Position numbers and translations under genes: made by a program
NCBI GenBank assembly: GCA_018304425.1
Contig: JAGVWE010000007.1
Span: 1 to 64,000 of the forward strand
Length of the DNA: 64,000 bases
Direction: 5' to 3'
Source of the DNA: Candidatus Iainarchaeum sp.
Lineage (GTDB): Archaea; Iainarchaeota; Iainarchaeia; Iainarchaeales; UBA10219
Notes under the pieces: generated by a model
Told to the model about the DNA's origin: nothing
Database searches by the model: none
What the model saw: the letters and a program-made list of their open reading frames with translations, nothing else
Part shown: piece by piece, positions 41,158 to 55,517 of the stretch
Layout: every line of letters begins with the position of its first letter
Numbering within the stretch: the first letter of the stretch is position 1

Positions 41158-41271
41158 GCCATCATAGGGAGTCAATGGCCTTAAAACCCTTGTTCCCAGC
41201 CTTTCCAGGCCCCCAACAGGGAAATATTTAAATGGCCGAACTCCCTATATTCTGCCGTTCCAGGGACTTGC

Positions 41272-41918
41272 ATGGCGAAACCAGGTGCATCGGCCGAAGA
41301 CGGGGGCGGCAGCACTTCCACGGGCATCCAAGAATTGGCACCTTTCTGGGGGGCGGTTTCCCCAAGGGAGCCGTGGTCCTCGTGGCCGGTTCCTCGGGCA
41401 GCGGCAAGACCATTTTCTCGTTCAACTGGCTGTTCGACGGCGCCCGCAAGGGCGAGAACGGCGTCTACGTCACCTTCACCGAGCCCCTGTTCAAGTCCGT
41501 GAAAAACCTGGAAGTCATGGACTTCTACGACCGCAAGCTCATCGAAGACGAGACCATCAAGATCCTGGACATCCGCGACCTCTACGCCGAGCAAGGCTTC
41601 GACGCCCAGCGCATCCTGGACACCGTGGAACGGCAGGTCAAGGAAACCAACGCCAAACGCCTCTGCATCGATTCCGTGACCGCGATCGCCTACAACCTGG
41701 ACGACAAGGCGAAGACCCGGAAATTCATTTTCGTGGACTCGCTGTCCACGATGCTGATTTACAACCGGCCGGACGTCTTCGCGCGGTTCATCCACAGCGT
41801 GCTCGTGAAAATCCGGCTGAACTCCATCAGCGGCCTGCTGTTGTTCATTGAAACGCAGGCGGACCGGGAAGTCCGCGCCGAAATCGCACAGTTGTGCGAC
41901 AAGGTCCTGCGGGTCTAG
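41272..41918 (+). pseudogene. KaiC/RecA-like ATPase, frameshifted and apparently chimeric
   Basis: STGIQEL is in one frame and TFLGGGFPKG...GSSGSGKT in another (shift ~41338). Two consecutive Walker-B-like segments (CIDSVT, FVDSLST). Confidence 0.7.
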
Positions 41919-41924
41919 GGGCTT

Positions 41925-42317
41925 TCACCAGCCGTCTGTTTTGAGGTTTTTCACGCGGTCGAAATGTTTGCGGTTGTTGGTGACCAAGATGGCCTCATGG
42001 CATACTGCGATGGCCGCAATCATGAGGTCCAGTACTTCGAGGCGGTTCCCCTTGCGGATGAATTCTGCGTCGAGTAGGGCGACCTGTTCGGCGGCATCAA
42101 CTTCGAAGGGAAGCGGTTGTAGCGAGGCCAGGAATTTCCTCGCAAGGTCGAGGCTGGCAGGCGTGCCATACAGCCGCTCTCCAACCAGCACTTCGTATAT
42201 GTTGATGCAGGTAGTGGCGATTTCCTTGTCCTGCTCCGGTAGTTGCCGTAATTTTGCGGTCGCAGCCTCTTTTCCGCGAAGATAGGCGATGATGCAATCG
42301 GAGTCAAGGATTATCAT
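41925..42317 (-). CDS. vapC: PIN-domain VapC toxin
   Basis: ILDSD, DLMIAA, VTNNRKHF. Confidence 0.9.
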   Translation of the reverse strand: MIILDSDCIIAYLRGKEAATAKLRQLPEQDKEIATTCINIYEVLVGERLYGTPASLDLARKFLASLQPLPFEVDAAEQVALLDAEFIRKGNRLEVLDLMIAAIAVCHEAILVTNNRKHFDRVKNLKTDGW

Positions 42318-42558
42318 GCATTCTCGCCTGTCGTTTCCAGAATGATGCCGTCGAGTCTTTCCTCAGTCGCCTGTACAAGGCCAGCCGCTTTTCGGCTTCC
42401 TCATCGGTCATCGGGATGCTGCCGAAATACTTCATGAGGTCGGGTTGTTCCTTTTCCGCCAGCCGCTCGAGCAGGTCGCTGAAGCTCTCGCCTTCGTGCT
42501 TGGCCCTGATGAGCTTCTCATAGACCTTGCCCTTGATGGTAAGGGTTTTGAAGACCAT
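42304..42558 (-). CDS. vapB: VapB-like antitoxin (DUF217 type)
   Basis: KTLTIKGKVYEKL...GESFSDLL; IR TATGTTTAA-GG-TTAAACATA at 42561-42580. Confidence 0.85.
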   Translation of the reverse strand: MVFKTLTIKGKVYEKLIRAKHEGESFSDLLERLAEKEQPDLMKYFGSIPMTDEEAEKRLALYRRLRKDSTASFWKRQARMHDNP

Positions 42559-42692
42559 GCTATGTTTAAGGTTAAACATATATTTAATCCTTGCTTCCAT
42601 CCTTTTAAGCAACAAACTATTTTTAAGGCAATTGTCGTAATATTGGTGTGTTCGGAGAGTAGATTAATATAGCCATAAAGCAATATAGCTAT

Positions 42693-42941
42693 ATGGCTAC
42701 AACTACGTTGCGGGTGCAACTGCCGGAGGAAAAAGCCAGAAAGGTGCGGGAGCAAGCCATGAAACGCTTCGGTTATTCGAAAGGGGCCATCAGCAAGGCG
42801 CTCAATGTGGCCTTGGATGAATGGTTGGGGAAGGCGAAACCAGCCAAACCGCCTATCACGGCCAAGGACTTGTTAGGGCGGCTGAGTGGCGTAAAGGAGT
42901 CCTCCGTGGAACTCCAGCACAAGGCTCGTGACTATTGGTAG
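42693..42941 (+). CDS. vapB: RHH antitoxin
   Basis: Similar to 17423-17659 (RFGYSKGAISKA); SSVELQH motif. Confidence 0.75.
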   Translation: MATTTLRVQLPEEKARKVREQAMKRFGYSKGAISKALNVALDEWLGKAKPAKPPITAKDLLGRLSGVKESSVELQHKARDYW

Positions 42942-42949
42942 GCTGTGCC

Positions 42950-43354
42950 ATGTATTTGCTGGACACCAACATTTTTTTGGAAATCCTCCTCGATGGCGCA
43001 CGCGCCACCGAATGCCTGCGCCTGCTCTCCCTTTTGCAGGGCGAACGGCTGTCTGCGGTTGTTTCGAAGTTCGCGGTTTATTCGATTTGCCTGATTCTTT
43101 TCAGGAAAAAACAACCCGATCTGGCCCGGGATTTCCTGGCCTATCTGGATTCCCTTCCAACCCTGCAAATCCATGGGACCTCCCTTGAGGAGGATGCCGA
43201 AGCCTTCGCCAGCGCGGAGAAATTTGGCCTTGACTTTGACGACGGCCTGCAGTTTACGGTTGCCAAGCGCTTGAGCGTGGAAGCCATCGTCTCCTTTGAC
43301 CGGGACTTCGACAAGACCCCCTTGAAGCGCCTGGAGCCAAGTCAAATCCTTTGA
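42950..43354 (+). CDS. vapC: PIN-domain VapC toxin
   Basis: LLDTNIFLE, LDFDD, SFDRDFD. Confidence 0.9.
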   Translation: MYLLDTNIFLEILLDGARATECLRLLSLLQGERLSAVVSKFAVYSICLILFRKKQPDLARDFLAYLDSLPTLQIHGTSLEEDAEAFASAEKFGLDFDDGLQFTVAKRLSVEAIVSFDRDFDKTPLKRLEPSQIL

Positions 43355-43368
43355 CGAGAACCGCTGTT

Positions 43369-43533
43369 TCACTCGGCTTCCGTTTCCTGTCGTCTGACCC
43401 GAAGGAAGATGCCCGCCGCAATCAGGGCCGCGAGCGCCATCGTGAGTTCGTCGTACTCGGGGATGACGTTGAGGGTGTTGCGGCTGCCGAAGGCGCTGGT
43501 CGTGGTTGGACGGGAAAACCGCTCGTTTCCCAT
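43369..43533 (-). repeat. Orphan PEY-CTERM sorting-signal copy C (54-aa mini-ORF)
   Basis: MGNERFSRPTTTSAFGSRNTLNVIPEYDELTMALAALIAAGIFLRVRRQETEAE; 75/78 nt identical to the 3' end of 48316-52128. Confidence 0.85.
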
Positions 43534-43952
43534 ATCGTCAGTAAAACATTTGGCGGTGAAATATGACAGTCGAATATTCTGTTGAGCCCTGGTACGCGCT
43601 TGAAATGCCTGGCGTTCCCGGTCAACAGGGTTTCCCGGGCTTGGAGGGCAATGGCCGCAATCATGCAGTCCTGTGGTTCGATGGGTTGGCCGGTTTGCCA
43701 GAGTCCTTGCTGGATTTCGCCTGCCTCGTTTGCGGCTTGGGCATCCAATGGCAGGGCAGGCAGGGAGGAAAAGAGTTCGCGGACGCGTTGCCTTTCTTCT
43801 TTTCCGGCGCGGTGGAGGCTTTGAATGACTTCAAACACGGTGATAGCCGTCGTCAGCAACGGTTCGCCTTTTCGCTTCAACTCCTCCGCCTTGGCGGCCG
43901 CACCCTTTTCTCCCCTGATAAGGTCAATGACGTAGCTGGTGTCAAGAATCAT
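43422..43952 (-). CDS. vapC: VapC toxin with aberrant C-terminal read-through
   Basis: ILDTS, DCMIAA, TGNARHF; no stop at the usual position. Confidence 0.8.
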   Translation of the reverse strand: MILDTSYVIDLIRGEKGAAAKAEELKRKGEPLLTTAITVFEVIQSLHRAGKEERQRVRELFSSLPALPLDAQAANEAGEIQQGLWQTGQPIEPQDCMIAAIALQARETLLTGNARHFKRVPGLNRIFDCHISPPNVLLTIWETSGFPVQPRPAPSAAATPSTSSPSTTNSRWRSRP

Positions 43953-44185
43953 GGACGGAAGCCTTCCATGAGGGCGCGACTCCGCGCCAGGCCGGTGGCT
44001 CTCGACGCTTGCACGGCTTCCTCCACCGTTGCCGTGGTCTTCTTGGACAGTATGCCCGCGAATTTCGTCAAATCCGTTTTGTTGGTGAGCCTGCAAATCA
44101 CTTGGCTGAAGCTCTCCCGCGCTTTTTTGCTGGAGGCCAGGCGCTTATAGGCGTCCACCGTAATCGAAATCGTTTTCGTTGCCAA
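43949..44185 (-). CDS. vapB: VapB-like antitoxin
   Basis: TTG start; ATKTISITVDAYKRL...ESFSQVI; ATGA overlap with vapC. Confidence 0.85.
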   Translation of the reverse strand: MATKTISITVDAYKRLASSKKARESFSQVICRLTNKTDLTKFAGILSKKTTATVEEAVQASRATGLARSRALMEGFRP

Positions 44186-44261
44186 TCTCCCACCTACACA
44201 TACATACACATACGTGTATTTAAGGCTTTGGCTGGAAAAGTGGTCGCCCTCGTTTATGCCA

Positions 44262-44363
44262 TTAAACGGTTTTCCCGCGTTCCATGCGCCTAATCCATCC
44301 GAAGGCGAGCGCGGCCAGTAGTACGGTCAAGGCCAGCGTGTAGTCCTCGTATTCTGGGTTCAC
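44262..44363 (-). repeat. Orphan PEY-CTERM copy D (33-aa mini-ORF)
   Basis: VNPEYEDYTLALTVLLAALAFGWIRRMERGKTV*: motif, TM helix, basic tail. Confidence 0.75.
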
Positions 44364-44368
44364 CTCGG

Positions 44369-45148
44369 TTAATGCTTTTTCAGCCCATTTTTTTGAATCC
44401 GTTCTTCAATTTCTTTTTTCACTTGGGGAAAGGAAGGCAGCGGGCCGCCAACCAGCCCACCCAAGTCCCGTTCCCAACTGCCTTTTTTTTCGTCCACTTT
44501 GGCCCAGAAACCGTCTGGCGTGAACCGGAGCCCGGCATGCGCCATTTTCCTGCTTATGAGCCCCGGTTCGGCGGGCACGCCTCTTCGTTTCAGCAGGTGC
44601 CAGAGGTCGTAGACGTCCCTGGCCTTGTTTCTTTCATGGATTGCCCTGATTTTTTCGGCAAGGATTTCTTTTTCGTCCATGGCAAACAGATTGAATGGCC
44701 GGATCTCCCGATAAATCGGGGCATACGGAAACGTTTGAACGGGCAGCAGCACGCGTTCCCTCAAGCTGATGTTGACGGCAAGGGAGGTTAGGCTTTCCTT
44801 GCTGCCGTCGTAAAGCGGCCCCCTTGCCTGCACGTAAACGTTTGTGCTCCTTTCAAACGCTTCCACGGTTGCCTTCGCCTTTACGTCCAGCAAGCTGAAA
44901 AGGCCGGGTAACCGCGTAAAGAAATTTTTTGGCTTGAAGCCTTTTCCAGCCGTGAAGTCGAGGTCTTCGCTGAAACGGTCCAACTTGTACGCCTTGTATA
45001 GGCAGGTTCCGCCTTTAAAGACGAGCTTGCTCCCGAACTCCCGGTAAATGTTTATCAAGGCCAGGTCCTGCAGGTAATCCAATTCCGTGAGCCGGAGGCT
45101 GAGGCCCTTGAATTTTGCGACGGCCTGCAGTTCTTCACGCTTGAGCAT
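44369..45148 (-). CDS. AbiEii nucleotidyltransferase toxin
   Basis: FKGGT, RFSEDLDF, AEKIRA, RDVYDL. Confidence 0.92.
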   Translation of the reverse strand: MLKREELQAVAKFKGLSLRLTELDYLQDLALINIYREFGSKLVFKGGTCLYKAYKLDRFSEDLDFTAGKGFKPKNFFTRLPGLFSLLDVKAKATVEAFERSTNVYVQARGPLYDGSKESLTSLAVNISLRERVLLPVQTFPYAPIYREIRPFNLFAMDEKEILAEKIRAIHERNKARDVYDLWHLLKRRGVPAEPGLISRKMAHAGLRFTPDGFWAKVDEKKGSWERDLGGLVGGPLPSFPQVKKEIEERIQKNGLKKH

Positions 45149-45722
45149 GCAGCGCCTCCCGCAATTTTTTGGCCCAGCCCCTCGCCTTTTTCGCGTGAAG
45201 CAAAAGCCTGTCCCTGTTGATTTTCCGCTTGTTGTTTTTTATGATGTCCACGGCCTCGGCCAAAGACATTTTCCTGGTCGCCAAGGCGTCCACGATTGCT
45301 TTTTCTTTCTCGGCCAAGAAGATTTCCCGGCCCTGGTAGGTCGTCCGCTGGAAGCCGGTGAAGGCGGTTTCCTTGATTTTGATGAATTCAATCCGGGCGT
45401 TCCCATAGGAAACGATTTTTTTCTTCCTCTTCCGGGTCGTGATTACATGGATGGTGAACGGCAGTTGCTCCGTCAATTTATGGTAGTTTAACGCCGCCCA
45501 GCACGAGATATAACTTGGCCAGACGATCCATGACGCCACGAGGAATGAATCCGTTTCCAGCGTGTACTTGCCCTTCTCGATTTCGTGGAGGACGCCCGCC
45601 TTTTTCAGCCGGTGTGCGACGAGGTACGCGTAATCAATGCCTTTATGGAGCGTGTCGGCGAGGTCCCTGGCCGTAAAAACCGGGTACGGCTTTAATGCCT
45701 CCAGCTCCTTCTTTTTTATCAT
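45135..45722 (-). CDS. AbiEi antitoxin
   Basis: IEKGKY, PSYISCWAALNYHKLTEQLP, EKAIVD. Confidence 0.88.
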   Translation of the reverse strand: MIKKKELEALKPYPVFTARDLADTLHKGIDYAYLVAHRLKKAGVLHEIEKGKYTLETDSFLVASWIVWPSYISCWAALNYHKLTEQLPFTIHVITTRKRKKKIVSYGNARIEFIKIKETAFTGFQRTTYQGREIFLAEKEKAIVDALATRKMSLAEAVDIIKNNKRKINRDRLLLHAKKARGWAKKLREALHAQA

Positions 45723-45750
45723 TCCACCAACCTTATCAAAACTGATATGA

Positions 45751-46326
45751 TTAGCCGCCCAACAATTTATAAGGCTTTTCGCTGGTGTTGCCGCCTAATC
45801 CCTGCAAACGCCATGGCCGCCAGGATAACGGCCAGCGCCATCGTGAGTTCGTCGTATTCGGGGATGACGTTGAGCGTGTTGTGGCTGCCGAAGGCGCTGG
45901 TCGTGGTTGGACGGGAAAACCGCTCGTTTCCCATATCGTCAGTAAAACATTTGGCGGTGAAATATGACAGTCGAATATTCTCTTGGCGTTCCTGGTCAAC
46001 AGGATTTCACGGGCTTGAAGGGCAATGGCCGCAATCATGCAGTCTTGTGGTTCGATGGGTTGGCCGCTTTGCCAGAGCCCTTGCTGGATTTCGCCTGCCT
46101 CATTCGCGGCTTGGGCATCCAATGGCAGGGCGGGCAGCGAGGAAAAAAGTTCTTGGACGCGTTGTTTTTCTTCTTTTCGGGCACGGTGCAGGCTTTGAAC
46201 TACTTCGAACACCGTGACGGCCGTCGTCAGCAACGGTTCGCCTTTCTTCTTCAATTCCTCGGCTTTGGTGACCGCACCCTTTTCCCCCCGAATCAGGTCA
46301 ATGACATAGGTGGTGTCAAGAATCAT
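45751..46326 (-). pseudogene. vapC: VapC paralog of 43422-43952 with C-terminal deletion and read-through
   Basis: Near-identical to the other copy but lacks HFKRVPGLN (27 nt). Confidence 0.7.
45767..45934 (-). repeat. Orphan PEY-CTERM copy B (55-aa mini-ORF)
   Basis: MGNERFSRPTTTSAFGSHNTLNVIPEYDELTMALAVILAAMAFAGIRRQHQRKAL*. Confidence 0.85.
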
Positions 46327-46559
46327 TGTTGGAGGCCTTCCATTAGGGCGCGACTGCGTGCCAGGCCGGCAGCCCTTGACGCTTGCACGGCCTTTTCCAT
46401 GGTGGCCGCGGTTTTCTTGGACAAGATGCCCGCGAATTTCGTCAAATCCGTTTTGTTGGTGAGCCTGCAAATGACTTGGCTGAAGCTTTCCCGTTCCATT
46501 TTACTAGAAGCCAGGCGCTTGTAGGCGTCCACCGTAATCGAAATGGTTTTCGTCGCCAA
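46323..46559 (-). CDS. vapB: VapB-like antitoxin (paralog of 43949-44185)
   Basis: Near-identical protein; shared upstream CCTACACATACATACACATACGTGTATTTAAGG promoter/operator. Confidence 0.85.
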   Translation of the reverse strand: MATKTISITVDAYKRLASSKMERESFSQVICRLTNKTDLTKFAGILSKKTAATMEKAVQASRAAGLARSRALMEGLQQ

Positions 46560-46650
46560 AGCTATCACCTACACATACATACACATACGTGTATTTAAGG
46601 ATTTGGTTGAAACCGCCTTCTCTGCCCAGTCTGCCCGGTTTGCCCAGGCC

Positions 46651-46896
46651 TCACCGGTCTTTCCCGCGTTCCCTGCGCCGGATGTGCGCGAACGCCATCG
46701 CCACCAGGGCCACGGCTAGCAGCAGGGTTAGGTCATCGTACTCGGGGATGACGTTGAGGGTGTTGGGGCTGCAGGCGCTCGTCGTGGTGTAGAGGTCGTC
46801 GGCCACCACGCGGATGTAATAGTCGCCGCTGGTGATGTCGCAGTTCCAGGCGTACACGCAGTTGATGTCTTGAGGTCGCAGACGGGTGGAGACCAT
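46651..46896 (-). repeat. Orphan C-terminal fragment with PEY-CTERM, copy A (81-aa ORF)
   Basis: CVYAWNCD...YYIRVVADD...SACSPNTLNVIPEYDD-TM-RRRERGK; 42 bp (46736-46777) identical to 48392-48433. Confidence 0.9.
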
Positions 46897-48272
46897 CAGC
46901 CGAATGTTTCTTCAAGATCCTTCAAGTCATAGAGGTCGGCGTTTTTTTCGTCGATCTTTTTTTCCTTGAATGATTTCGCGAATAGGCAATACCGTTCCGT
47001 TCTGTGCTCTTTGAACCAGCTTACTTTTTCCGCTTTTTGTTTGAGTTTTCGCAGCAGGCTCTCGGCATCGACTTTTTCTTTCCACTTGCATTCGCAGAAG
47101 AGTGCGCTTTTTTTTGCCTTGCTAAGGCCCACGATGTCTATTTCTTCGCCTTTATCCCACCAGCTGCCGATGAGGTAGTCCTTGAAGGCGGCATTTTTGG
47201 ACAGCCGGTCTCGGCACACCTCTTCGAACCCTTTGCCGATGAAGGCGTTCAGTTCGGGCTCTATTTTCTCGTTTAAGAGGTTTTTCTGCTTGCGTTGTTC
47301 TACGTAATCCATGTTTTCAAACACGAAGCGGAACCAGAAGCGGAAGAAAGGGTCTTTCAGTTTGTAGATGCCTTTCCTCGATTTTTCCTTTCGCTCAGTA
47401 ATGGGCACGGCACGCTCGACGAGGTCAAGGTCAATCAATACGCCAAGGTATTTGTTTACGGTGCCTTTTTCCAGGCCCGTGTCGTTGACGATGCGCCCGA
47501 TGCCGGTGTTGCCCTTTGCGATGGCGGCCACGATGGAAAAATAGTTTCTCGGCTCGTCCAGTTCCTCCCGCAGCACGAACATCGGGTCCCGGAACAGGAA
47601 GGACTGCTTTTCCAGGATTTTTTCCCCGATATTGGAAACCAGCGTTTTCGTGTAATCAAATTCAAGCAGGTAGGCAGGGGTGCCACCGAGCACCGCGTAG
47701 TAACTGATTTGTTTTTTGATGTCCATCGTTTTCGGGAAGAAATGGCGGGCTTCGCTGAAATCAAGGGGGTCAAGCTTCATTTGATGTGTTCGCCTCCCGT
47801 AGAGGGGACTCTTATAGCCGAGGAGTTTTTCCATCATGGAGACGCTGGAGCCGCATAAGACGAAGAGGCAGGGCATGTGTTGGAGTGCCTTATCCCAGTG
47901 GTCTTGCAGAATGGAGGGCAGCGAGGGGTTAGCTTGTACGAAGTAAGGGAACTCGTCCAGGAATACGGCGAACGGTTTTTGCTTCAGTTTTTCGGCGAAG
48001 TAGGAGAAAACGGAGTCGAAGTTGCCAAAGGGCCTTGAATTCAGTTGTTCATCGTTGAAAAACTCGGCGCAGGCCCTGCTGATATGCTCCAATTGCTTGT
48101 GTTCGGATTCCTGCCGGCCCAGCAGGTAAACAGCGGGATGATTTTTTGTGAATTCCCTTAGTAACTCGGTTTTGCCGATTCTACGTCTGCCGTATACTAC
48201 GGCTAGCACTGGCTTTTTTGCCGACCAAAGCGTTTCAAGCAACTGTAGTTCCTTCACCCGGTTGTAAAACAT
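46896..48272 (-). CDS. Archaeal AAA ATPase with wHTH and C-terminal DUF234/PD-(D/E)XK domain
   Basis: FYNRVKEL, YGRRRIGKT, DEFP, GGTPAYL, EIDIV...ECKW. Confidence 0.9.
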   Translation of the reverse strand: MFYNRVKELQLLETLWSAKKPVLAVVYGRRRIGKTELLREFTKNHPAVYLLGRQESEHKQLEHISRACAEFFNDEQLNSRPFGNFDSVFSYFAEKLKQKPFAVFLDEFPYFVQANPSLPSILQDHWDKALQHMPCLFVLCGSSVSMMEKLLGYKSPLYGRRTHQMKLDPLDFSEARHFFPKTMDIKKQISYYAVLGGTPAYLLEFDYTKTLVSNIGEKILEKQSFLFRDPMFVLREELDEPRNYFSIVAAIAKGNTGIGRIVNDTGLEKGTVNKYLGVLIDLDLVERAVPITERKEKSRKGIYKLKDPFFRFWFRFVFENMDYVEQRKQKNLLNEKIEPELNAFIGKGFEEVCRDRLSKNAAFKDYLIGSWWDKGEEIDIVGLSKAKKSALFCECKWKEKVDAESLLRKLKQKAEKVSWFKEHRTERYCLFAKSFKEKKIDEKNADLYDLKDLEETFG

Positions 48273-48315
48273 AGTAAACTCTAAAGTATACTACTTATGA
48301 GAATACTATTTAAAC

Positions 48316-51300
48316 CTATGGTTTGGCCGCCCGTCGCACGCGCAGGAAGATGCCTGCCGCGATCAGGGCCGCGAGCGCCATCGTGATTTCGTCGTACTCG
48401 GGGATGACGTTGAGGGTGTTGGGGCTGCAGGCGTTGGTTTTGGTGAACCCGTCGTCGGCTTCGACGCGGAGGTAGTAGTTGCCTATCGTTACGTCGCAGG
48501 TCCAGGAATAGAGGCAGCTGGTGTCATCCGGGTTGCAGGCCGCCGTGGTCTGGCTGATGTTGCCGATGATGAGGTTGGTGTTGTTGGCGCAGGTGCTGGC
48601 GTCCGTGCCGTAATAAATGCTGAAGTTGACGTCGTCGAGGTCGGCATCGTCGGCTGTCCATGTAATGTCGTAGGGGGTTGGAACGGTGCAGCTCTGCCCG
48701 CTGCCCGTGGGCGCCACGCTGCTCACGGCCGGCGCATCGTTGGCGCTGATGAGGACGCTGCCGGACTGCTGCTTGATTTGCTTCTTGTTGAGGACACTGT
48801 TCCAGATGAAGACTGAGTCTAAGTCTATATGTGCAAAACCAAGATTATCTAATCTTTGCCCAAATATGATTTTTTGGTCTTCATCACTCATCGTGGTATT
48901 ACCCGAACTGGCCCTAAGAACGCCATTAACATACAATCTTCCGCCAACAGTAGTATTCGCCGTCCCTGCGACATGTATCCAGGTATTTTGAGGGAGTGTA
49001 TCTACTGCAGTCAACAAGTTAGCGGTGCCCGACGCACCATATACTAAAACAATATCCTGAGGGAAAGCATCAGCAGCGGTTCTAAAATCGAAAGGTGCAG
49101 GAAAGTTATTATTCGTTGATCCATTTTTTTCGACCATGGGATTATATACTGCAGATTGTGCTCTTACCCAATATGCTACAGTAAATGCCGTGCTAAGACT
49201 AGAAGTCAAATCTGCAATCTCGACTTTGTCATCTACCCCATCAAATTTCAAGTCAGTGTATTCAGCCGGTGTCATAGGGGTGTTCGTGTCCCATCTCGGG
49301 CCGGAAAGCAGTTCCCCATGCTTGTTGCCAGACGTTGCATCCCAGGCCCGGATGGCGTTGCTGTCGTCTTTGTTGAAGTTCCACGCGCTGACCAGCCCGC
49401 TTTCCGTGCCCATTAGTTGTTTGGGCGTGCTGTCTTGTCCAATGTTCTTGGCTTTGTCGTAGACGTTGACGTCGATGAAGTAGTTTTGGTCTGCGAGGCC
49501 AGCGGGGTTCCAGTCGTAGAAGCATAGCACGTTCTGGTCGAAGAAGTAACGGGGTTCGCTGGCGTAACTGGTTCCGCCGGGCGCACTGCAGTTGGCGTCG
49601 TTGGTGGGGTTGCGGGCGAGTTGGGCGAGGTTGACGTCGGCAGCGAATTTGCCTGACGTGTTGAAGTCGGCCGCGTAGAGGCTCGCGTAGAGGCTTGCAT
49701 AGAGTTCGTCTTCTTCGCGGAAGTTGCCACTAGCTGGGAGGGGAGCGTAGGAAGTGTCTCTCACCGTGAACTTGACGAGGATGTTGCCGTCCGTTTTCTG
49801 GTAGTGCGAGCCGCCTTCCGGCCAAAGCAGGTTGGCGTCCGGTCCGTTCGTGGTATGCGTGCCACAGTAGTTGTTGCAGCGGTTTATGTAGCCGCTTTCT
49901 TGGTGGATGAAACAGGTGTTGCCGCCCGAGCATTGCCCGGAAGCAGTGCAGGCCGGGTTGCAGCCCCATTGGTTGATGAAGTCCGTGGGCCAGGCGGACG
50001 TGATGTTGGCGGTGGTGGCCGCAATGTTGAAGTCGATGTCAGCATAGTAGGTGGCTACGCCTAATGTGCCGGTACTGATATTGCAGGGCGCGAACAGGAG
50101 GTTGAAGTCGTACTCGGTGCCGCCCGTGTAGCTGCCGGCACAGGTGATGTTCGCGGTGTTGTCGGGGGCGCTCGAATAGGTGCGTGAACAGCCGGTGGGT
50201 AGCAGGGGCGCGCTGACGAGGGCAAACGTTTTGTAGGGGATGTCGGGGGAGTCAATTAGGGGGTCGTTGCAGGTGTAACCGACTTGTTGGGGCGCCGGTA
50301 CGAGGGGCGTGGCATGGTTGCCGCGTATGGGGGTGAGGAGCGATGTCGCATAGTGGGGCTCGATTTTGAAGCCTAGGTTGCCGCTGACATTGGGCATGAC
50401 TTTGAGTCTCACGAGGTATTGGTGGGTGTTGGTGTCCGTGGTTGTCAGGTTGAAGGTGAAGTTGGAGTCGGGACTGCAGGCCATGTTGTTGCCGTCTCCG
50501 GCGCGGCCCACGAGGTCGCTGGGGCAGGTGGCGGGCGCGTTGGCGCCGTTGAGGTCAATGCTCGCGTAGAGGACGGCCGCGTTCCAGTCATCAATCCAGT
50601 CCATGGGGTACATGCGCCACGCGCCTCCCGAGGTCCCGCCGTCGGCTGAAAGGTTGAGGTCTTCGGCCTGGATGTCGGTTGTTCTGGGATGGTTTGCCCA
50701 GCGGCAGGGTTTGACGGTGATTCTTCCAGCGTACGGGGTGCCGCCGGCCAAAGTAGTAGTGGCGTTGCCGTCGTCTCCAACGTAATTGGTGTCGGTGAGC
50801 GTCCAGTGGGGGTTGCGGAGGCCGGCCGTGTTGCCCGTGGTTCCAAACCAGCCGTTGGGGCTGAGGGGGCTGTCAATGAAGTCAACGATTTCCCAGCGGG
50901 GAAGGTTGAGGTCGATGGGCTCCCACAGTGCCCCCCCGAGTATGGGGTCTGAGAAGCATTTGTTGCCCGCGAAGGCGGTGGAATTGTTTGGTACGTAGCT
51001 AATGGGTTTGCCTTGTCTTACGCCTGCGTCCACGTTGTGGTCGCCGTACGGCGAATCCCATTTTCCGACGGCGCCCGCCGAATAGCGCAAGCCAAAGTTG
51101 TTGTCGATGCTGCGGTGGATGTTGCTCATGATGTTGTAGTCGATGACGTAATTGGTGTCCAGGATGAAGGCCGTGTCGGGCGTGCAGTAGGGGAGTTCCC
51201 CGTTGGTGTCGATTTCGCCGTTATTGGCGTTTCCGGCGTACACCATGCCTCCCATGCTGGTGTGGCTGACGAGGGAGCGGGTGCCGTTCTCGACTTTGAC

Positions 51301-52128
51301 GCAGTTGATGTTGTTGCCGGTCAATTCGAGTCCATGGTAGATGGCGTTCACGTTCCAGTCATCGATGAAGTCCAGGGTGTAGGGTTGGGCACCGCAGTTG
51401 CCGAGGTTGCTCTGGTCGTAAAAACGCACGTCCAGGCGCTGGGGGTGGTTCACGAACCGGCATGGAATGGCGGTAGTCCATTTCCCCGCGCATCCGATGA
51501 TTCCCCCGGGGCACATCGGGGGCGGGGTGCCACAGGCTGTGCAAGTATTCGGGTTGGGGCAAATCAGTCGTTCGGCGAGGTAGCTGGTGGTGGGGGTCGT
51601 GGAGGTGCAACCGCATCCTTGTCCGGGGGGAACGCAGGCACCGAACGCGGTCTTGGCGCCGCCGATGCAGGCGCCGCCTCCGAGGTTAGCCGTCGTGTTG
51701 ACCGCCCATCGGGGCCCGACTCCGGACTTGTTCTCGTCGTTGATGCATTGCCAGCCGACTTCATAGGCCAAGGTCTTGCTGGGGCCGTTTCCACAACTCC
51801 AGATTGCGTTGAAGCTGGGACATGTTTCGATGCTGATGTTCTCGTCGTAGCTGGGATCAAGCCCCAGGGCTTCGGTCATTTCGAGTTCGAAGGCCCCGGC
51901 CGCGCGTTGGGTTAAGGGTCCAAGGCCTTGGTCTAGGCCGGGGGCATAGGCGTCGATGGGAGTGCAGGAGTCAACTCCTCCCGCCGTCGTCGCACACGGG
52001 GTTCCGGCGCCTCCCGAGTTCGGGCCGCCCCAAGTCAATTCCATGGCGTGTCCGGTGAGGATGGCGGATAGGGCCAGGGCGAGCGCCACCAGCGTCCATC
52101 CGGTCGGCCATCGGATCTGTTTACCCAT
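48316..52128 (-). CDS. Large Cys-rich surface protein with LamG domain and PEF-CTERM-like (IPEY) sorting signal
   Basis: Signal peptide; internal repeats; LamG (GLVSAWNF, FDGVDD, WIHVA, LYVNG); ends VIPEYD-TM-RVRR. Confidence 0.9.
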   Translation of the reverse strand: MGKQIRWPTGWTLVALALALSAILTGHAMELTWGGPNSGGAGTPCATTAGGVDSCTPIDAYAPGLDQGLGPLTQRAAGAFELEMTEALGLDPSYDENISIETCPSFNAIWSCGNGPSKTLAYEVGWQCINDENKSGVGPRWAVNTTANLGGGACIGGAKTAFGACVPPGQGCGCTSTTPTTSYLAERLICPNPNTCTACGTPPPMCPGGIIGCAGKWTTAIPCRFVNHPQRLDVRFYDQSNLGNCGAQPYTLDFIDDWNVNAIYHGLELTGNNINCVKVENGTRSLVSHTSMGGMVYAGNANNGEIDTNGELPYCTPDTAFILDTNYVIDYNIMSNIHRSIDNNFGLRYSAGAVGKWDSPYGDHNVDAGVRQGKPISYVPNNSTAFAGNKCFSDPILGGALWEPIDLNLPRWEIVDFIDSPLSPNGWFGTTGNTAGLRNPHWTLTDTNYVGDDGNATTTLAGGTPYAGRITVKPCRWANHPRTTDIQAEDLNLSADGGTSGGAWRMYPMDWIDDWNAAVLYASIDLNGANAPATCPSDLVGRAGDGNNMACSPDSNFTFNLTTTDTNTHQYLVRLKVMPNVSGNLGFKIEPHYATSLLTPIRGNHATPLVPAPQQVGYTCNDPLIDSPDIPYKTFALVSAPLLPTGCSRTYSSAPDNTANITCAGSYTGGTEYDFNLLFAPCNISTGTLGVATYYADIDFNIAATTANITSAWPTDFINQWGCNPACTASGQCSGGNTCFIHQESGYINRCNNYCGTHTTNGPDANLLWPEGGSHYQKTDGNILVKFTVRDTSYAPLPASGNFREEDELYASLYASLYAADFNTSGKFAADVNLAQLARNPTNDANCSAPGGTSYASEPRYFFDQNVLCFYDWNPAGLADQNYFIDVNVYDKAKNIGQDSTPKQLMGTESGLVSAWNFNKDDSNAIRAWDATSGNKHGELLSGPRWDTNTPMTPAEYTDLKFDGVDDKVEIADLTSSLSTAFTVAYWVRAQSAVYNPMVEKNGSTNNNFPAPFDFRTAADAFPQDIVLVYGASGTANLLTAVDTLPQNTWIHVAGTANTTVGGRLYVNGVLRASSGNTTMSDEDQKIIFGQRLDNLGFAHIDLDSVFIWNSVLNKKQIKQQSGSVLISANDAPAVSSVAPTGSGQSCTVPTPYDITWTADDADLDDVNFSIYYGTDASTCANNTNLIIGNISQTTAACNPDDTSCLYSWTCDVTIGNYYLRVEADDGFTKTNACSPNTLNVIPEYDEITMALAALIAAGIFLRVRRAAKP

Positions 52129-52236
52129 CCATTCCCCTCAATTCAACCCCTATACTAATAGTGTTTGTCTAATATAATACGGATAGGATTAAATTGTTTG
52201 CCTTTAAAAGCATTTCCGGCACCCAATGGTTTCAGG

Positions 52237-52309
52237 GGGCGTGTAGTCTAGTCTGGTAGGATACCAGCTTTGGGAGCTGGCGACCTCGGTTCAAATCCGG
52301 GCACGCCCA
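52237..52309 (+). tRNA. tRNA-Pro(TGG)
   Basis: Cloverleaf; CCAGC-TTTGGGA-GCTGG; TTTAAAA box upstream. Confidence 0.95.
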
Positions 52310-52418
52310 TCCTTTTAAAGCCGCTTTTTTTCTTGGCTGGGCTGGGGGAGCCGCTTCTAGTGCCAAGCCTGCTTTGTCTATCAGGGCAGGGCCTGCACGA
52401 AGATTATTATGCCTGGTG

Positions 52419-53624
52419 TTAAAACCGGATGGCGGGTTCTTTTTCCGTGAGCCATTCTTGGAGGTTCTTGTTTTCTATTTCGATGTTTTCTTCGGTGCTT
52501 TTGCTTGTCTTTCCGGGGTAGAGGATGGTTGCTTTCAGGGCCTTGTTTTTTTTGCAGAATTCCATCAGGCCTTCCTTTTCCCTTTTTGGCAGGTTTTCGG
52601 AGTAACAAACGTTTATCGGCAACAGGCTCGTTTTTTTCTTTGCGACGAAATCGACTTCCCCGGCGTTTTTCCAGTAATAGGCCTCGAATCCCCGGTGCTT
52701 GAGTTCGATTGCAACTGCTGCCTCGGCAAGCCTGCCCCTGTCTTCGGTGAATGACTTTGAAGCGTATTGCTGCATTCCCAAGTCAAAGGCAAAGACCTTT
52801 CTGGGCTTTGAAAGGGATTCCTTTAGGGAGAACGAAAAGAACGGGACCTGGAAAACCAGGAAGGAGGCTTCCAGGTAACCCAGGAACTGTCTTATCGTGT
52901 CGTACGACAAGCCAAGGGCGACCCGCATTTTTTTCAGGCTTACTTGTTTTCCGGAGTTCGTCAACAGGTAAAACGCAAGGTTTCGTAAAGCCGCAGGGTC
53001 TCTCACGTCATGCCGCGTAATTATGTCTTTAATCAAGGCGAGTTCGAAATAGGACTCCAACAATTTTTCTTTTTTTTCGGGGTGCAAGGCGACTTCAGGG
53101 TAGCCCCCAATCTTGAGGTAGGCGTTAAGGCCTTTCTTGGTTACGCGCTGAAACTCGCTGAAAGAAAAAGGCAGTACTTGAAAACCAATCCCCCTTCCAC
53201 CCAAAGAAGTCGCAAACTCGCTGCTCAAGAGCTTTGCGGAAGAACCCGTGACTATTACCTGGCACTGCCGTGTGTCGACGGCCCTTCGGACCCATTTCTC
53301 CCATCCCTCGACTAATTGCACTTCATCGAAGACAAGGGTGTCTTTCGCCTTCAAGCCGTCTGCAAAAGCGTCCAGTAAATCGGTGTTCAACGAGCCCACA
53401 AGCTTCGGGTCTTCCAGGTTGACGTACCGTGTCAACGTGTTCTCCGGCATTTTTTTCAGAAGCCTTCGGGCGACAACGGATTTCCCTGAACGCCTGGGGC
53501 CATACAAGAAAACGACGTTGCGACTGCCCACGAAGGGCAGTATGTCATCTTCAACGTCTCTTTTGAAGGTAGTCTCTTTGACGGCCCATTTTTCCAGAAG
53601 CTCGCCTAATTCCCTTGAAAGCAT
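52419..53624 (-). CDS. AAA+ ATPase (AAA_14 plus DUF4143-like)
   Basis: GPRRSGKS, DEVQ, TGSS, GGYPE, EVDFV. Confidence 0.9.
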   Translation of the reverse strand: MLSRELGELLEKWAVKETTFKRDVEDDILPFVGSRNVVFLYGPRRSGKSVVARRLLKKMPENTLTRYVNLEDPKLVGSLNTDLLDAFADGLKAKDTLVFDEVQLVEGWEKWVRRAVDTRQCQVIVTGSSAKLLSSEFATSLGGRGIGFQVLPFSFSEFQRVTKKGLNAYLKIGGYPEVALHPEKKEKLLESYFELALIKDIITRHDVRDPAALRNLAFYLLTNSGKQVSLKKMRVALGLSYDTIRQFLGYLEASFLVFQVPFFSFSLKESLSKPRKVFAFDLGMQQYASKSFTEDRGRLAEAAVAIELKHRGFEAYYWKNAGEVDFVAKKKTSLLPINVCYSENLPKREKEGLMEFCKKNKALKATILYPGKTSKSTEENIEIENKNLQEWLTEKEPAIRF

Positions 53625-53653
53625 GAAAAACCGGTGCGCAAACGAATATATAA

Positions 53654-53677
53654 AGGGTTACGTTACAACGTAACCCT
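53654..53677. promoter_or_regulatory. Perfect 11-bp inverted repeat between two TATA-like boxes
   Basis: AGGGTTACGTT-AC-AACGTAACCCT flanked by TATATAAA on both sides, upstream of the ATPase. Confidence 0.65.
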
Positions 53678-53741
53678 ATATAAAGGCTCAAAAAACGCTG
53701 TTGGCGGGTTTAAACCCCCAAACAGGATGTAAGCCGGGCCA

Positions 53742-53910
53742 GGCCTATGCAACGCATAGGCCGTTTCCCCGAAGACTTTGTCTTCGGGGCCTCGTCTCCC
53801 AACAGGGAGACAAGGTCGCAGGCCTTTTGTAAAAAGGCGTGCGAGGCGAAGCCGAGCCAGTTCCATGCCGTGCATGGAACCTTTTCGCAGGCCTTTTGTA
53901 AAAAGGCCTT
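53742..53910 (+). repeat. Train of short palindromes (REP-like) upstream of tRNA-Pro
   Basis: At least six adjacent hairpins; TCGCAGGCCTTTTGTAAAAAGGC occurs twice (53816, 53885). Confidence 0.75.
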
Positions 53911-54033
53911 GGGCGTGTAGTCTAGTCTGGTAGGATACCAGCTTTGGGAAAGCCTTTTTTGCTTGCGCAAAAAACCCTTGGGAAAAGGGCTTCCAGCGTG
54001 CTGGCGACCTCGGTTCAAATCCGGGCACGCCCA
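53911..54033 (+). tRNA. tRNA-Pro(TGG) second copy with 50-nt intron (53949-53998)
   Basis: Exons identical to 52237-52309 except position 38; relaxed BHB motif. Confidence 0.85.
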
Positions 54034-54072
54034 TCATAGTATAGTTCCAATCAGCTTGTCCTTGTGGGTAGC

Positions 54073-55332
54073 TTACCTTTCAAGGAGCCATTTCCAGGCA
54101 GGCGTCACCCTTGTCTTGCCGATTCGGGTTTCTTGGTCATACGTTATGATGATGCCTTTCCTGCCGCCAAATCGTTGGATGGCTTCCTCTAGGCCCCTGG
54201 TTTCGCGTTTCTTGTTTTCTTCGGTGAGCGTGTGGCACACCTGTATGCAGGCATCCTTGGTTAGGAAGTCGCATTCAAATCCGTTCTTGTAATAGTTTAT
54301 TTCAGTGTTGCCACGGCGGAACAATTCCGTGAACACAATGTTTTCCAGTATTCTGCCGGGGTCTTTTTCGGTGTTGTAGTAGTTGATGAAGCCATGGTCG
54401 CAGACATAGGCCTTTTTCAGGTAGGCCGATTCCTTTTTGAAGGATTTTTGTTTTGCATTGACAAAGAAGCAAAAGTATGCGTCTTCAAGGCATTTCGAGT
54501 ATTTCTGTATAACGGAGGTGCTGGATTTGTAGCCACTGCTTTTCGCAAAGTTGTTGAATTTGTTCATTGAGTACTCGGAAGCATATTGCCTCGTGAGGTT
54601 CTTCATGAGCAACCGCATCAGTTCGATGTTCTCTACCTTGAACCGCTCGACGATGTCCTGGAATAGCGTGGTTTTGAAGTATTGGTCGATGAACTCCAGC
54701 TTCTTTTCCAGCACTATTTCCGGGAACCCACTCAGGTGCATGAACTCGTCAAACGCTTTTTTTACGGCTGCTTTGGTTCCATTGAACTCCCAATTCCTGC
54801 CCGGGCGGATGCCCCGTATTCCAAGGAATTCCTTGAATGACAAGGGCATCACTTGAATGGGATAGTCCCGTCCCCTCACGGCAGTGGCGATTTCCTTGCT
54901 TAAAAGCCTCGAATTGGAGCCGGTGACATAAACCCGATAAGCTTCGTCGTTCACGCGCCTGACGAATTTTTCCCAGCCCGCCACATTCTGGATTTCGTCA
55001 AAAAAAAGCAGGGGTCTTTTGTCCGGGTAAAGCTCGCCATAAGCTTCCAGTGCCAGCCCCAGCTGGCTGGCTTTCATTTCCGAAATCCGTTCGTCCTCGA
55101 AATTAAGGTAGAGAAAATCAACCAAATCCAAACCCTTTTTCAGGTGTTCCTGCATGATCTGGTAAAGCATGTAGGTTTTGCCGGCCCTCCTGGGACCAAG
55201 GATTACGAAAACCTTGTTGACCTCCTTGAATTCAGGCACTTCGACGTCTCTCTCGAATGCCTTCGGCAGCCCCCTTGAATGAAAACCCGCAATGGCTTCC
55301 TTGACGGCTTTCTTTATCTCGACATCCAGCAT
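54073..55332 (-). CDS. AAA+ ATPase (AAA_14 plus DUF4143-like)
   Basis: GPRRAGKT, DEIQ, TGSNS, GFPE, ECDFL. Confidence 0.9.
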   Translation of the reverse strand: MLDVEIKKAVKEAIAGFHSRGLPKAFERDVEVPEFKEVNKVFVILGPRRAGKTYMLYQIMQEHLKKGLDLVDFLYLNFEDERISEMKASQLGLALEAYGELYPDKRPLLFFDEIQNVAGWEKFVRRVNDEAYRVYVTGSNSRLLSKEIATAVRGRDYPIQVMPLSFKEFLGIRGIRPGRNWEFNGTKAAVKKAFDEFMHLSGFPEIVLEKKLEFIDQYFKTTLFQDIVERFKVENIELMRLLMKNLTRQYASEYSMNKFNNFAKSSGYKSSTSVIQKYSKCLEDAYFCFFVNAKQKSFKKESAYLKKAYVCDHGFINYYNTEKDPGRILENIVFTELFRRGNTEINYYKNGFECDFLTKDACIQVCHTLTEENKKRETRGLEEAIQRFGGRKGIIITYDQETRIGKTRVTPAWKWLLER

Positions 55333-55455
55333 ACTATACTAGCCCCCCAACAGCTATTTAAATCTTTCTTTTAAAAGAAAGAATTATGGCAAAATTGTTC
55401 TCTTAAAAGAATGCTTTTGCCTGCGGCCATTAGTCTGGCCCGGCAGGCTGCCCCA

Positions 55456-55497
55456 CTTTGGGAGCTGGCGACCTCGGTTCAAATCCGGGCACGCCCA
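55456..55497 (+). repeat. 3' half of tRNA-Pro(TGG), att-like direct repeat
   Basis: 42 bp identical to the 3' end of 52237-52309; 5' half absent except TAGTCTGG at 55431. Confidence 0.9.
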
Positions 55498-55517
55498 TTC
55501 GCCTTCTATTTTCCCTC

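Follow-up and report, generated by a model that had tools for sequence, protein, structure and literature searches.

Copies of a C-terminal sorting signal border toxin–antitoxin and ATPase modules downstream of a surface-protein gene in Candidatus Iainarchaeum

The locus and its sorting signal

The DNA considered here, called the window, is a stretch of 64,000 nt on contig JAGVWE010000007.1 of Candidatus Iainarchaeum sp. (assembly GCA_018304425.1), and coordinates are positions in this window. A gene on its minus strand (48316-52128 in the list of open reading frames, ORFs), hereafter Main, encodes a 1270-residue surface protein with an N-terminal hydrophobic leader, a Laminin_G_3 (LamG) domain (PF13385, 2.4e-17 in Pfam) and a C-terminal sorting signal, and the DNA coding for this signal recurs downstream in four fragment copies, A to D. 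All elements lie on the minus strand in the order Main tail, DUF234 ATPase, A, VapB1/VapC1, B, AbiEi/AbiEii, D, VapB2/VapC2 and C. Each interval between neighbouring copies holds one self-contained module of a recognised toxin–antitoxin (TA) or ATPase family (4/4, Pfam), giving units of 0.9-1.7 kb. The host genome is 1.48 Mb long in 7 contigs, with a completeness of 92.6%, and encodes GatD/GatE, an ATP-dependent DNA ligase and an archaeal-type ProRS.

The Main protein ends in NTLNVIPEYD followed by EITMALAALIAAGIFLRVRRAAKP. Its copy of the signal occupies 48316-48433 at the end of the ORF, and a 25-nt core, CCCTCAACGTCATCCCCGAGTACGA, lies at 48392-48416 on the minus strand. The core pattern AAYGTNATHCCNGARTAYGA matches the window 4 times against an expectation of 0.02, and none of 100 shuffled sequences got to 4. 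Signals of this kind were recognised by three parts, namely a signature motif, a hydrophobic helix of about 17-20 residues and a basic cluster near the stop codon, and inspection by eye finds PEY, a hydrophobic span and RR or RK in all five window copies and in the related sequences P0001, P0015 and P0016. Curated signal models (NCBIfam) gave sub-threshold matches only, such as PGF_CTERM at 13.3 bits against a cut-off of 24.5, and the PEF-CTERM model matched no copy at E<=1. The names PEF-CTERM and archaeosortase C reportedly go back to Haft et al. in 2012. The genome has one exosortase/archaeosortase-family gene (C1:451798-452709), which scores 26.6 bits against PF09721 when its in-frame neighbours are included (cut-off 25.7), 30.9 against TIGR04178 (cut-off 23) and 23.2 against the ArtC model, far under the cut-off of 100; its product would be the partner of the PEY-type signal if, as we infer, the two belong together.

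A regular-expression scan, BLASTN and a six-frame protein search of the 1.48-Mb genome confine the signal to this island, where Main is the one full-length carrier next to the four fragments. A profile search (HMMER) of 1.84e9 cluster representatives gave only 4 clusters. Word-based searches of 5.8e9 clusters gave Main and P0001 as the only full-length carriers, together with 11 short ORFs, 9 of which are variants absent from the window; the cluster members P0006 and P0008 proved to be unrelated proteins. P0001 is 1801 residues long, is encoded on a contig of 19.4 kb and has the tail ...NTLNVIPEYDEITMALAALMAAGIFLRVRRKAENDGP. It holds the C-terminal module twice (residues about 1225-1290), the first copy ending in ...ACSSNTV exactly where the core would start, after which the second module follows, which places a breakpoint at the core's 5' edge in a gene other than Main.

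The four fragment copies

Copy A (46651-46896) is an open frame of 81 codons, and its ATG overlaps with the ATPase stop codon (TGATG). It consists of about 135 nt of a diverged immunoglobulin (Ig)-like domain end, the core and the tail DLTLLLAVALVAMAFAHIRRRERGKDR. Copy B (45767-45934, with an upstream block extending to 45981) has its core at 45852-45876 with 2 mismatches and the tail ELTMALAVILAAMAFAGIRRQHQRKAL. Copy C (43369-43533, with an upstream block at 43482-43580) has its core at 43451-43475 and the tail ELTMALAALIAAGIFLRVRRQETEAE. Copy D (44262-44363) begins within the core (VNPEYE), 5 nt past the AbiEii stop codon, and carries the tail DYTLALTVLLAALAFGWIRRMERGKTV; its core is degenerate (NPEYE, 15/25). 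All four are on the minus strand. Upstream of the core, A retains about 135 nt of gene-derived sequence, B and C retain about 20 nt each, and D has none. The copies span only the last 33-81 codons of the gene, which comprise the signal with no more than 45 residues from the last domain. All fragments retain open frames. They start 0-60 nt past the stop codon of the preceding cassette gene.

Frame, hydrophobic span and RR/RK cluster are kept in all eight tails (Main, A, B, C, D, P0001, P0015 and P0016) despite saturated divergence, which suggests that these tails diverged while serving as real tails on live genes and were displaced later. The 38 upstream codons of A differ from Main with a proportion of synonymous differences (pS) of 0.63 and of non-synonymous differences (pN) of 0.29, and A, Main and P0001 are about equidistant in the 42 residues that precede the core (22-25/42). 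Since A has diverged under purifying selection and stands equally far from Main and P0001, it is the end of a third family member and does not descend from Main's own end by decay. Several databases hold entries for small 'proteins' predicted at A, B and C; most probably these are gene tails that have been displaced.

The cores lie as direct repeats on either side of all four units. Identities across the units are 42/42 for Main and A (the block at unit 1), 23/25 for A and B, 16/25 for B and D and 15/25 for D and C. A TATA-like box, read by eye, is present 28-44 nt ahead of the first start codon in 4/4 modules and touches the stop codon of the preceding tail in two of them. A TTTAAATA box sits 2 nt past the Main stop codon, before the ATPase, and a TTATAAAT box overlaps the stop codon of copy B, before AbiEi. 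The spacer past copy A (46605-46650) holds three tandem units of about 9 nt, GGGCAAACC, GGGCAGACT and GGGCAGAGA, just upstream of the VapB1 promoter, and they are absent past copy D.

Mosaic structure of the copies

A preliminary description of the locus held that the sequences upstream and downstream of the signal have been reassorted around one core of about 30 bp by repeated crossover there. The observation itself stands, and every number in it was reproduced. Main and A are identical over 42/42 nt (48392-48433 and 46736-46777), a run that extends on neither side and that 0/20000 permutations of the Main/A match vector (67% identity, 242 columns) equalled, and their tails are distinct (30/64 nt). 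Main and C share 75/78 nt across core and tail (48344-48421 and 43403-43480), and upstream of the core C is foreign, being unrelated to Main beyond about 20 nt. The longest run between Main and C is 34 nt, a length reached by 63/20000 permutations; past this patch the last 28 tail nucleotides differ at 16 positions, and all five codons of LRVRR differ synonymously. B and C are identical over 99 nt upstream of the core (45883-45981 and 43482-43580), with 3 mismatches over 148 nt, and then pass into different tails (39/67 positions differ); 3/20000 permutations reach a run of 99 nt. The resemblance between the tails of A and D, on which the description also relied, proved modest: 36/64 nt, plus 15/21 nt at the RRxERGK end, with a longest run of 13 nt that 700/20000 permutations matched, and A is as close to B (40/64).

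When position 0 is set at the end of the core (...TACGA), the grouping of the copies switches five times within about 110 nt. A, B and C stand against Main at -60..-43 (A/B 15/16, Main/B 13/16), Main and A against B and C at -42..-26, where a 3-nt insertion or deletion is included, and Main, A and C are identical (25/25) in the core, where B has 2 changes. Main, B and C stand against A at +1..+19 (9 sites), and at +22..+58 there are 14 informative sites that unite Main with C against A with B and 2 that unite Main with A against B with C. B is itself mosaic, with a tail that begins like those of C and Main and goes on like those of A and D. The grouping changes at about -43, -26, the core, +20 and +48, so that there is no single fixed crossover position, and the exchange end points vary among pairs (-30, 0, +20 and +48). 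The reassortment is thus confirmed, and the single core site is not, because the end points spread from about -30 to +48.

The exchanged patches are young relative to their surroundings. Upstream of the core pS between Main and A is 0.63, and tail pairs have pS of 0.59-0.72 except Main/C with 0.37, yet there are no differences in the 42-nt block. The patches of 42, 78 and 99-148 nt have old divergence (pS 0.6-0.7) on both sides; the B/C block is either much younger than its surroundings or under constraint at the DNA level. Duplication followed by drift alone fails, as C sides with B upstream (99 nt identical) and with Main in core and tail (75/78). The mosaic is real and needs recombination. 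The tracts are identical, bounded by diverged homologous sequence and accompanied by incongruent site patterns, as expected of gene conversion, and the old divergence on both sides of each patch suggests short conversion tracts, which fit the patches better than one reciprocal crossover at a fixed site would. This marks the gene end as a local hotspot of recombination rather than a machine of a new kind.

The cassettes and their surroundings

The first cassette is an ATPase_2/DUF234 ATPase of 458 residues (46896-48272). The second (45982-46568) consists of VapB1 (46323-46568) and VapC1, which starts at 46326 (PF02697 and PF01850). The third (44369-45722) consists of AbiEi (45135-45722; PF13338, a weak match below cut-off) and AbiEii (44369-45148; PF08843), and the fourth (43581-44209) of VapB2 (43949-44209) and VapC2, which starts at 43952. 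All four are on the minus strand and were assigned with Pfam. The units A-VapBC-B and D-VapBC-C are 86% identical over about 810 nt, and the related units measure about 0.8-2.4 kb. In the complete versions present on the independent metagenome contig L009, the synonymous divergence (dS) between the two pairs is 0.44 for VapC and 0.59 for VapB, with a ratio of non-synonymous to synonymous divergence (dN/dS) of about 0.1, so that both VapBC pairs are under selection to be kept. The tails of A and D are about 60% identical (51/85), roughly the neutral-decay expectation over the divergence time of VapBC. Since the two VapBC units are related, the likeness of the A and D tails and that of the B and C upstream segments stem from this relationship and not from separate crossovers.

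Compared with L009 and with Logan contigs of runs X1 and X7, the window is short by 54 nt at 45981/45982 and by 27 nt at 43580/43581, at the VapC ends. The VapC stop codons fall within the absent nucleotides, as does the left arm of a 13-bp hairpin, and both gaps share the same right-hand end base; because the stop codons are absent, both VapC frames of the window run into copies C and B. The short form is supported by no listed contig. A reading of the gaps as one-ended deletions at an element end was dropped, as the longer form is present in L009, X1 and X7, and an assembly fault or a minor variant is possible. In L009, the B/C block has a 13-bp hairpin directly 3' of the VapC stop codon and a second hairpin of 7 bp (z -2.8).

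The GC content is 0.49-0.55 over 42000-49500 and 52000-55500, and 0.60-0.65 in the flanks. Directly beyond copy C lies a convergent PIN pair on the plus strand (42693-43354), which is one of two further PIN/VapB-type TA pairs, the other being at 41925-42615 on the minus strand; the island has at least 5 TA pairs within 5 kb. A KaiC-like ATPase (41232-41918) also lies on the far side of copy C.

Recombinases and the adjoining tRNA-Pro array

No match to PF00589, PF00239, PF01797 or PF07282 was found within 41-56 kb of the window. Phage_integrase (PF00589) has three matches in the genome (C1:397115, C1:617 and C7:98-319), PF00239 has none, and Y1 transposase and TnpB matches occur on other contigs only; wherever matches to the integrase, resolvase, Y1 and TnpB families exist, they lie on other contigs or 43 kb away. 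A reading of the copies as integron-like attC sites was rejected, as the copy segments fold no better than shuffled ones (z 0.14, -0.44, 0.05, 0.14 and 0.67) and no integrase is nearby.

Next to the start of the Main gene there are three copies of a tRNA-Pro(TGG) with 100% identity. One is whole (52237-52309), a second is whole with an intron-like insert of 50 nt after position 39 and was missed by ARAGORN (53911-54033), and the third is a 3' piece of 42 nt (55456-55497). They bracket two single-gene AAA_14/DUF4143 ATPase cassettes (52419-53624 and 54073-55332) that share 32% amino acid identity, and the stretch looks like a tandem array of integrated mini-elements without an integrase. Among known RNA families, tRNA-Pro was the only one found at 41-53 kb.

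Variants in other assemblies

Near-identical DNA is present in groundwater and soil metagenome runs. L009 covers 43490-48372 at 98.9-99.9% identity, with no mismatch over 43490-45985 and 2 over 45982-48372, and it agrees with the window in the copies A, B and D and in their junctions; an alignment read by eye shows the B/C upstream block identical over about 130 nt in it. Logan contigs, built at k=31, break within the 42-nt and 99-nt repeats and cannot confirm the pairing of upstream segments with tails; one of them runs from 44196 to 45912 and contains the tail of B, its core and 40 nt of upstream sequence.

Further combinations of segments occur outside the window. P0015 joins a B/C-type upstream segment to a third tail family, and P0016 has a new upstream segment and a new tail. 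P0010 is a copy A carrying a C-type patch (FGSRNTLNA), and P0013 joins the B-type His to the C tail. P0009, encoded on a contig of 1496 nt, joins the upstream segment of A to the Main tail, which is the junction expected of a circle or a tandem copy of the ATPase cassette; the circle is predicted to measure 1656 nt. A contig of run X6 matches the window exactly over 240 nt and has 8 clustered substitutions confined to the Main tail, at a depth of 4 and with the changes near the contig end.

Two other sets of contigs touch on the genes themselves. Contigs of X6 and X7 match the 5' part of the Main gene and then diverge from the window at about 49340-49368, where the GC content falls from about 0.60 to a value near 0.52. 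Strains may exchange the last third of the gene, starting with the LamG domain. Contigs of X1 have differing sequence on either side of the spacer between the B stop codon and the AbiEi start (45723-45766), and one continues into another gene start, suggesting that some cells have another module in place of AbiE.

Origin of the array

The explanation favoured here, with about an even chance of being right, is the serial accretion of integrase-free cassettes at the 3' end of the gene through the shared signal stretch, followed by patchy conversion. Copies A to D would be displaced 3' ends of a surface-protein gene family, each made up of an upstream remnant, the core and an anchor tail, and would mark the borders of four integrase-free cassettes (DUF234 ATPase, VapBC, AbiE and VapBC) piled up at the 3' end of the only archaeosortase-type substrate gene of the genome. 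Insertion, and later excision or re-insertion, would be a Campbell-type exchange within the signal-coding stretch, the only sequence common to all partners, so that the gene would retain a working tail while the former tail is moved downstream. Among copies within 5 kb of each other, homologous recombination would then copy short tracts, and scattered exchange points would give the mosaic. The layout of the array, the mosaic, the young patches and the further combinations elsewhere are observed directly; cassette entry through the signal stretch is a proposed reconstruction. In its favour count the single module in every interval, the confinement of the signal to this island, the young patches within old divergence, the intact tails, the new combinations in other assemblies, the low GC content with the neighbouring tRNA-Pro array, and the use of protein-gene ends reported for archaeal elements. 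The enzyme would presumably be the general homologous-recombination machinery and not a dedicated recombinase, since end points that differ between pairs are expected of homologous exchange and not of a fixed-site recombinase.

Several observations weigh against serial accretion. Plain local duplication could account for the two VapBC units, as their high-identity part starts at the VapB promoter and not at the core. Simple serial insertion predicts the oldest tail in the distal copy C, yet C is the copy most like Main, so that extra conversion or the import of a block must be assumed. The synonymous-site identity of the core could in part be codon bias, and P0009 could be a chimera of the k-mer graph across the 42-nt repeat. 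No contig joins two cores among the contigs (not raw reads) of X1, X6, X7 and X10, which are broken by repeats and so are silent on rare forms. Neither an empty site nor a relative with fewer cassettes was found: the signal occurs in 0/40 and then 0/195 genomes of the same order, which gave distant matches to the preceding domain only. Two scans of genome_contigs and one search of viral_contigs gave 0 matches, and a metagenome scan gave L009 only, which is the same strain.

The core could instead be an attachment (att) site for a tyrosine recombinase acting in trans, with cassettes that run from core to core and bring a replacement tail, and with mosaics that are attL/attR hybrids. The layout of gene upstream segment, core, new tail, cassette, cassette upstream segment, core and old tail fits all four units, both VapBC units share their arms (an RRxERGK-type tail and a GNERF-type upstream segment), and one upstream block is found with three tail families, in B, C and P0015. 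The 25/25 identity of the core in Main, A and C, the classic att look of the tRNA-Pro-flanked array and the three Phage_integrase matches elsewhere in the genome point in the same direction. However, there is no recombinase in or near the island, the exchange end points are not at one place, the copies fold no better than shuffled sequence (z -0.4 to +0.7) and the core of D is degenerate (15/25), and this explanation is somewhat unlikely. An origin without any cassette mobility via the signal, in which remnants of tandem paralogues, one local duplication of 2.4 kb and ectopic gene conversion produced the locus, is unlikely as well, if by no means negligible. It accounts for the 86% identity of the A..B and D..C units over about 810 nt, for the roughly 60% identity of A and D, which fits neutral decay at the VapBC dS of 0.44-0.59, for the upstream part of A, whose divergence under purifying selection (pN/pS about 0.46) is what a formerly full-length paralogue would show, and for patches bounded on both sides. 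It leaves unexplained why each fragment abuts the end of a different TA/ATPase module, why no paralogue body is present anywhere in the genome and why the same upstream block occurs with new tails in other assemblies.

Two further explanations concern the fragments as they stand. Their open frames, the coupling of the A start to the ATPase stop codon and the X6 variant with its 8 substitutions restricted to the Main tail would suit silent donor cassettes selected for the swapping of anchor tails, or small tail-anchored proteins with a function of their own. The copies cover only the part that a sortase removes or that the membrane buries, however, so that the benefit of swapping is not obvious; signal peptides are missing from the fragments, not one of the 20 runs carrying the locus is recorded as RNA, and the X6 contig has a depth of 4 with its changes close to the end, all of which leaves such a role very improbable. 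It is more improbable still that the mosaic is an assembly artefact or the product of chance and drift. Repeats of 42 nt and 99 nt can mislead assemblers, and the window does differ from three other assemblies by the 27-nt and 54-nt gaps at the VapC ends, but in the independent L009 the copies A, B and D and their junctions are identical, the Logan contig at 44196-45912 spans the B tail, the core and 40 nt upstream of it, and the permutation tests argue against chance. A more far-reaching reading can be imagined, in which the core is the capture site of an integrase-free cassette system in a very small archaeal genome, TA and defence cassettes with spare tails enter and leave at the 3' end of the single archaeosortase substrate gene without ever breaking it, a host recombinase acts in trans and the tRNA-Pro array is served by the same machinery; this reading is doubtful.

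Comparison with known systems

Archaeal integrated mobile genetic elements (iMGEs) are reported to use the 3'-distal parts of protein genes (14/68), to bring a new stop codon and to form tandem arrays (PMC6563490). The island resembles these arrays and the tRNA arrays of tycheposons (bioRxiv 10.1101/2020.12.28.424599) in that each unit is flanked by direct repeats of the 3' end of its target, incoming DNA gives a new gene end and stop codon while the old end is displaced, and units with defence or TA cargo are stacked in tandem. It differs from them in that the units have no integrase and are only 0.9-1.7 kb long, the target codes for a C-terminal sorting signal, and the repeats are strongly diverged and homogenised in patches, with variable exchange points.

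Ectopic gene conversion among nearby repeats also gives identical tracts, here of 42-148 nt, within old divergence and a grouping that shifts along the sequence, but alone it creates no array and leaves the copies at the cassette borders unexplained. Chromosomal integron arrays are likewise one-directional series of small TA-rich cassettes with their own promoters and a recurring site between them; here, in contrast, there is no IntI nearby and no attC-like fold, and the site is the end of a protein-coding gene with long arms beside a shared core. With PEF-CTERM and archaeosortase C the island shares a Pro-Glu-aromatic motif, a hydrophobic span, a basic cluster and an exosortase/archaeosortase-family gene in the genome, whereas the PEF-CTERM model is unmatched at E<=1, the enzyme reaches 23 bits against 100 for ArtC and there is one substrate gene. 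The locus does not resemble antigenic variation of the pilE/pilS type, as the copies cover the signal and not an exposed variable part. The literature search found no paper on duplicated or recombining sorting-signal copies, which speaks only weakly for their absence from print. The unusual features of the island are the sorting-signal target, the tiny integrase-free units and the strongly patchwork repeats.

Biological implications

The locus shows how defence and TA modules can pile up even in a genome of about 1.5 Mb that has hardly any mobile-element enzymes, with a short conserved gene end re-used as a landing or exchange site and the gene left intact. For annotation, the short ORFs at A, B and C that stand in databases most likely need to be read as gene tails. 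Should the core prove a genuine site of recombination, the locus would offer a rare example of an attachment site within a protein-sorting signal.

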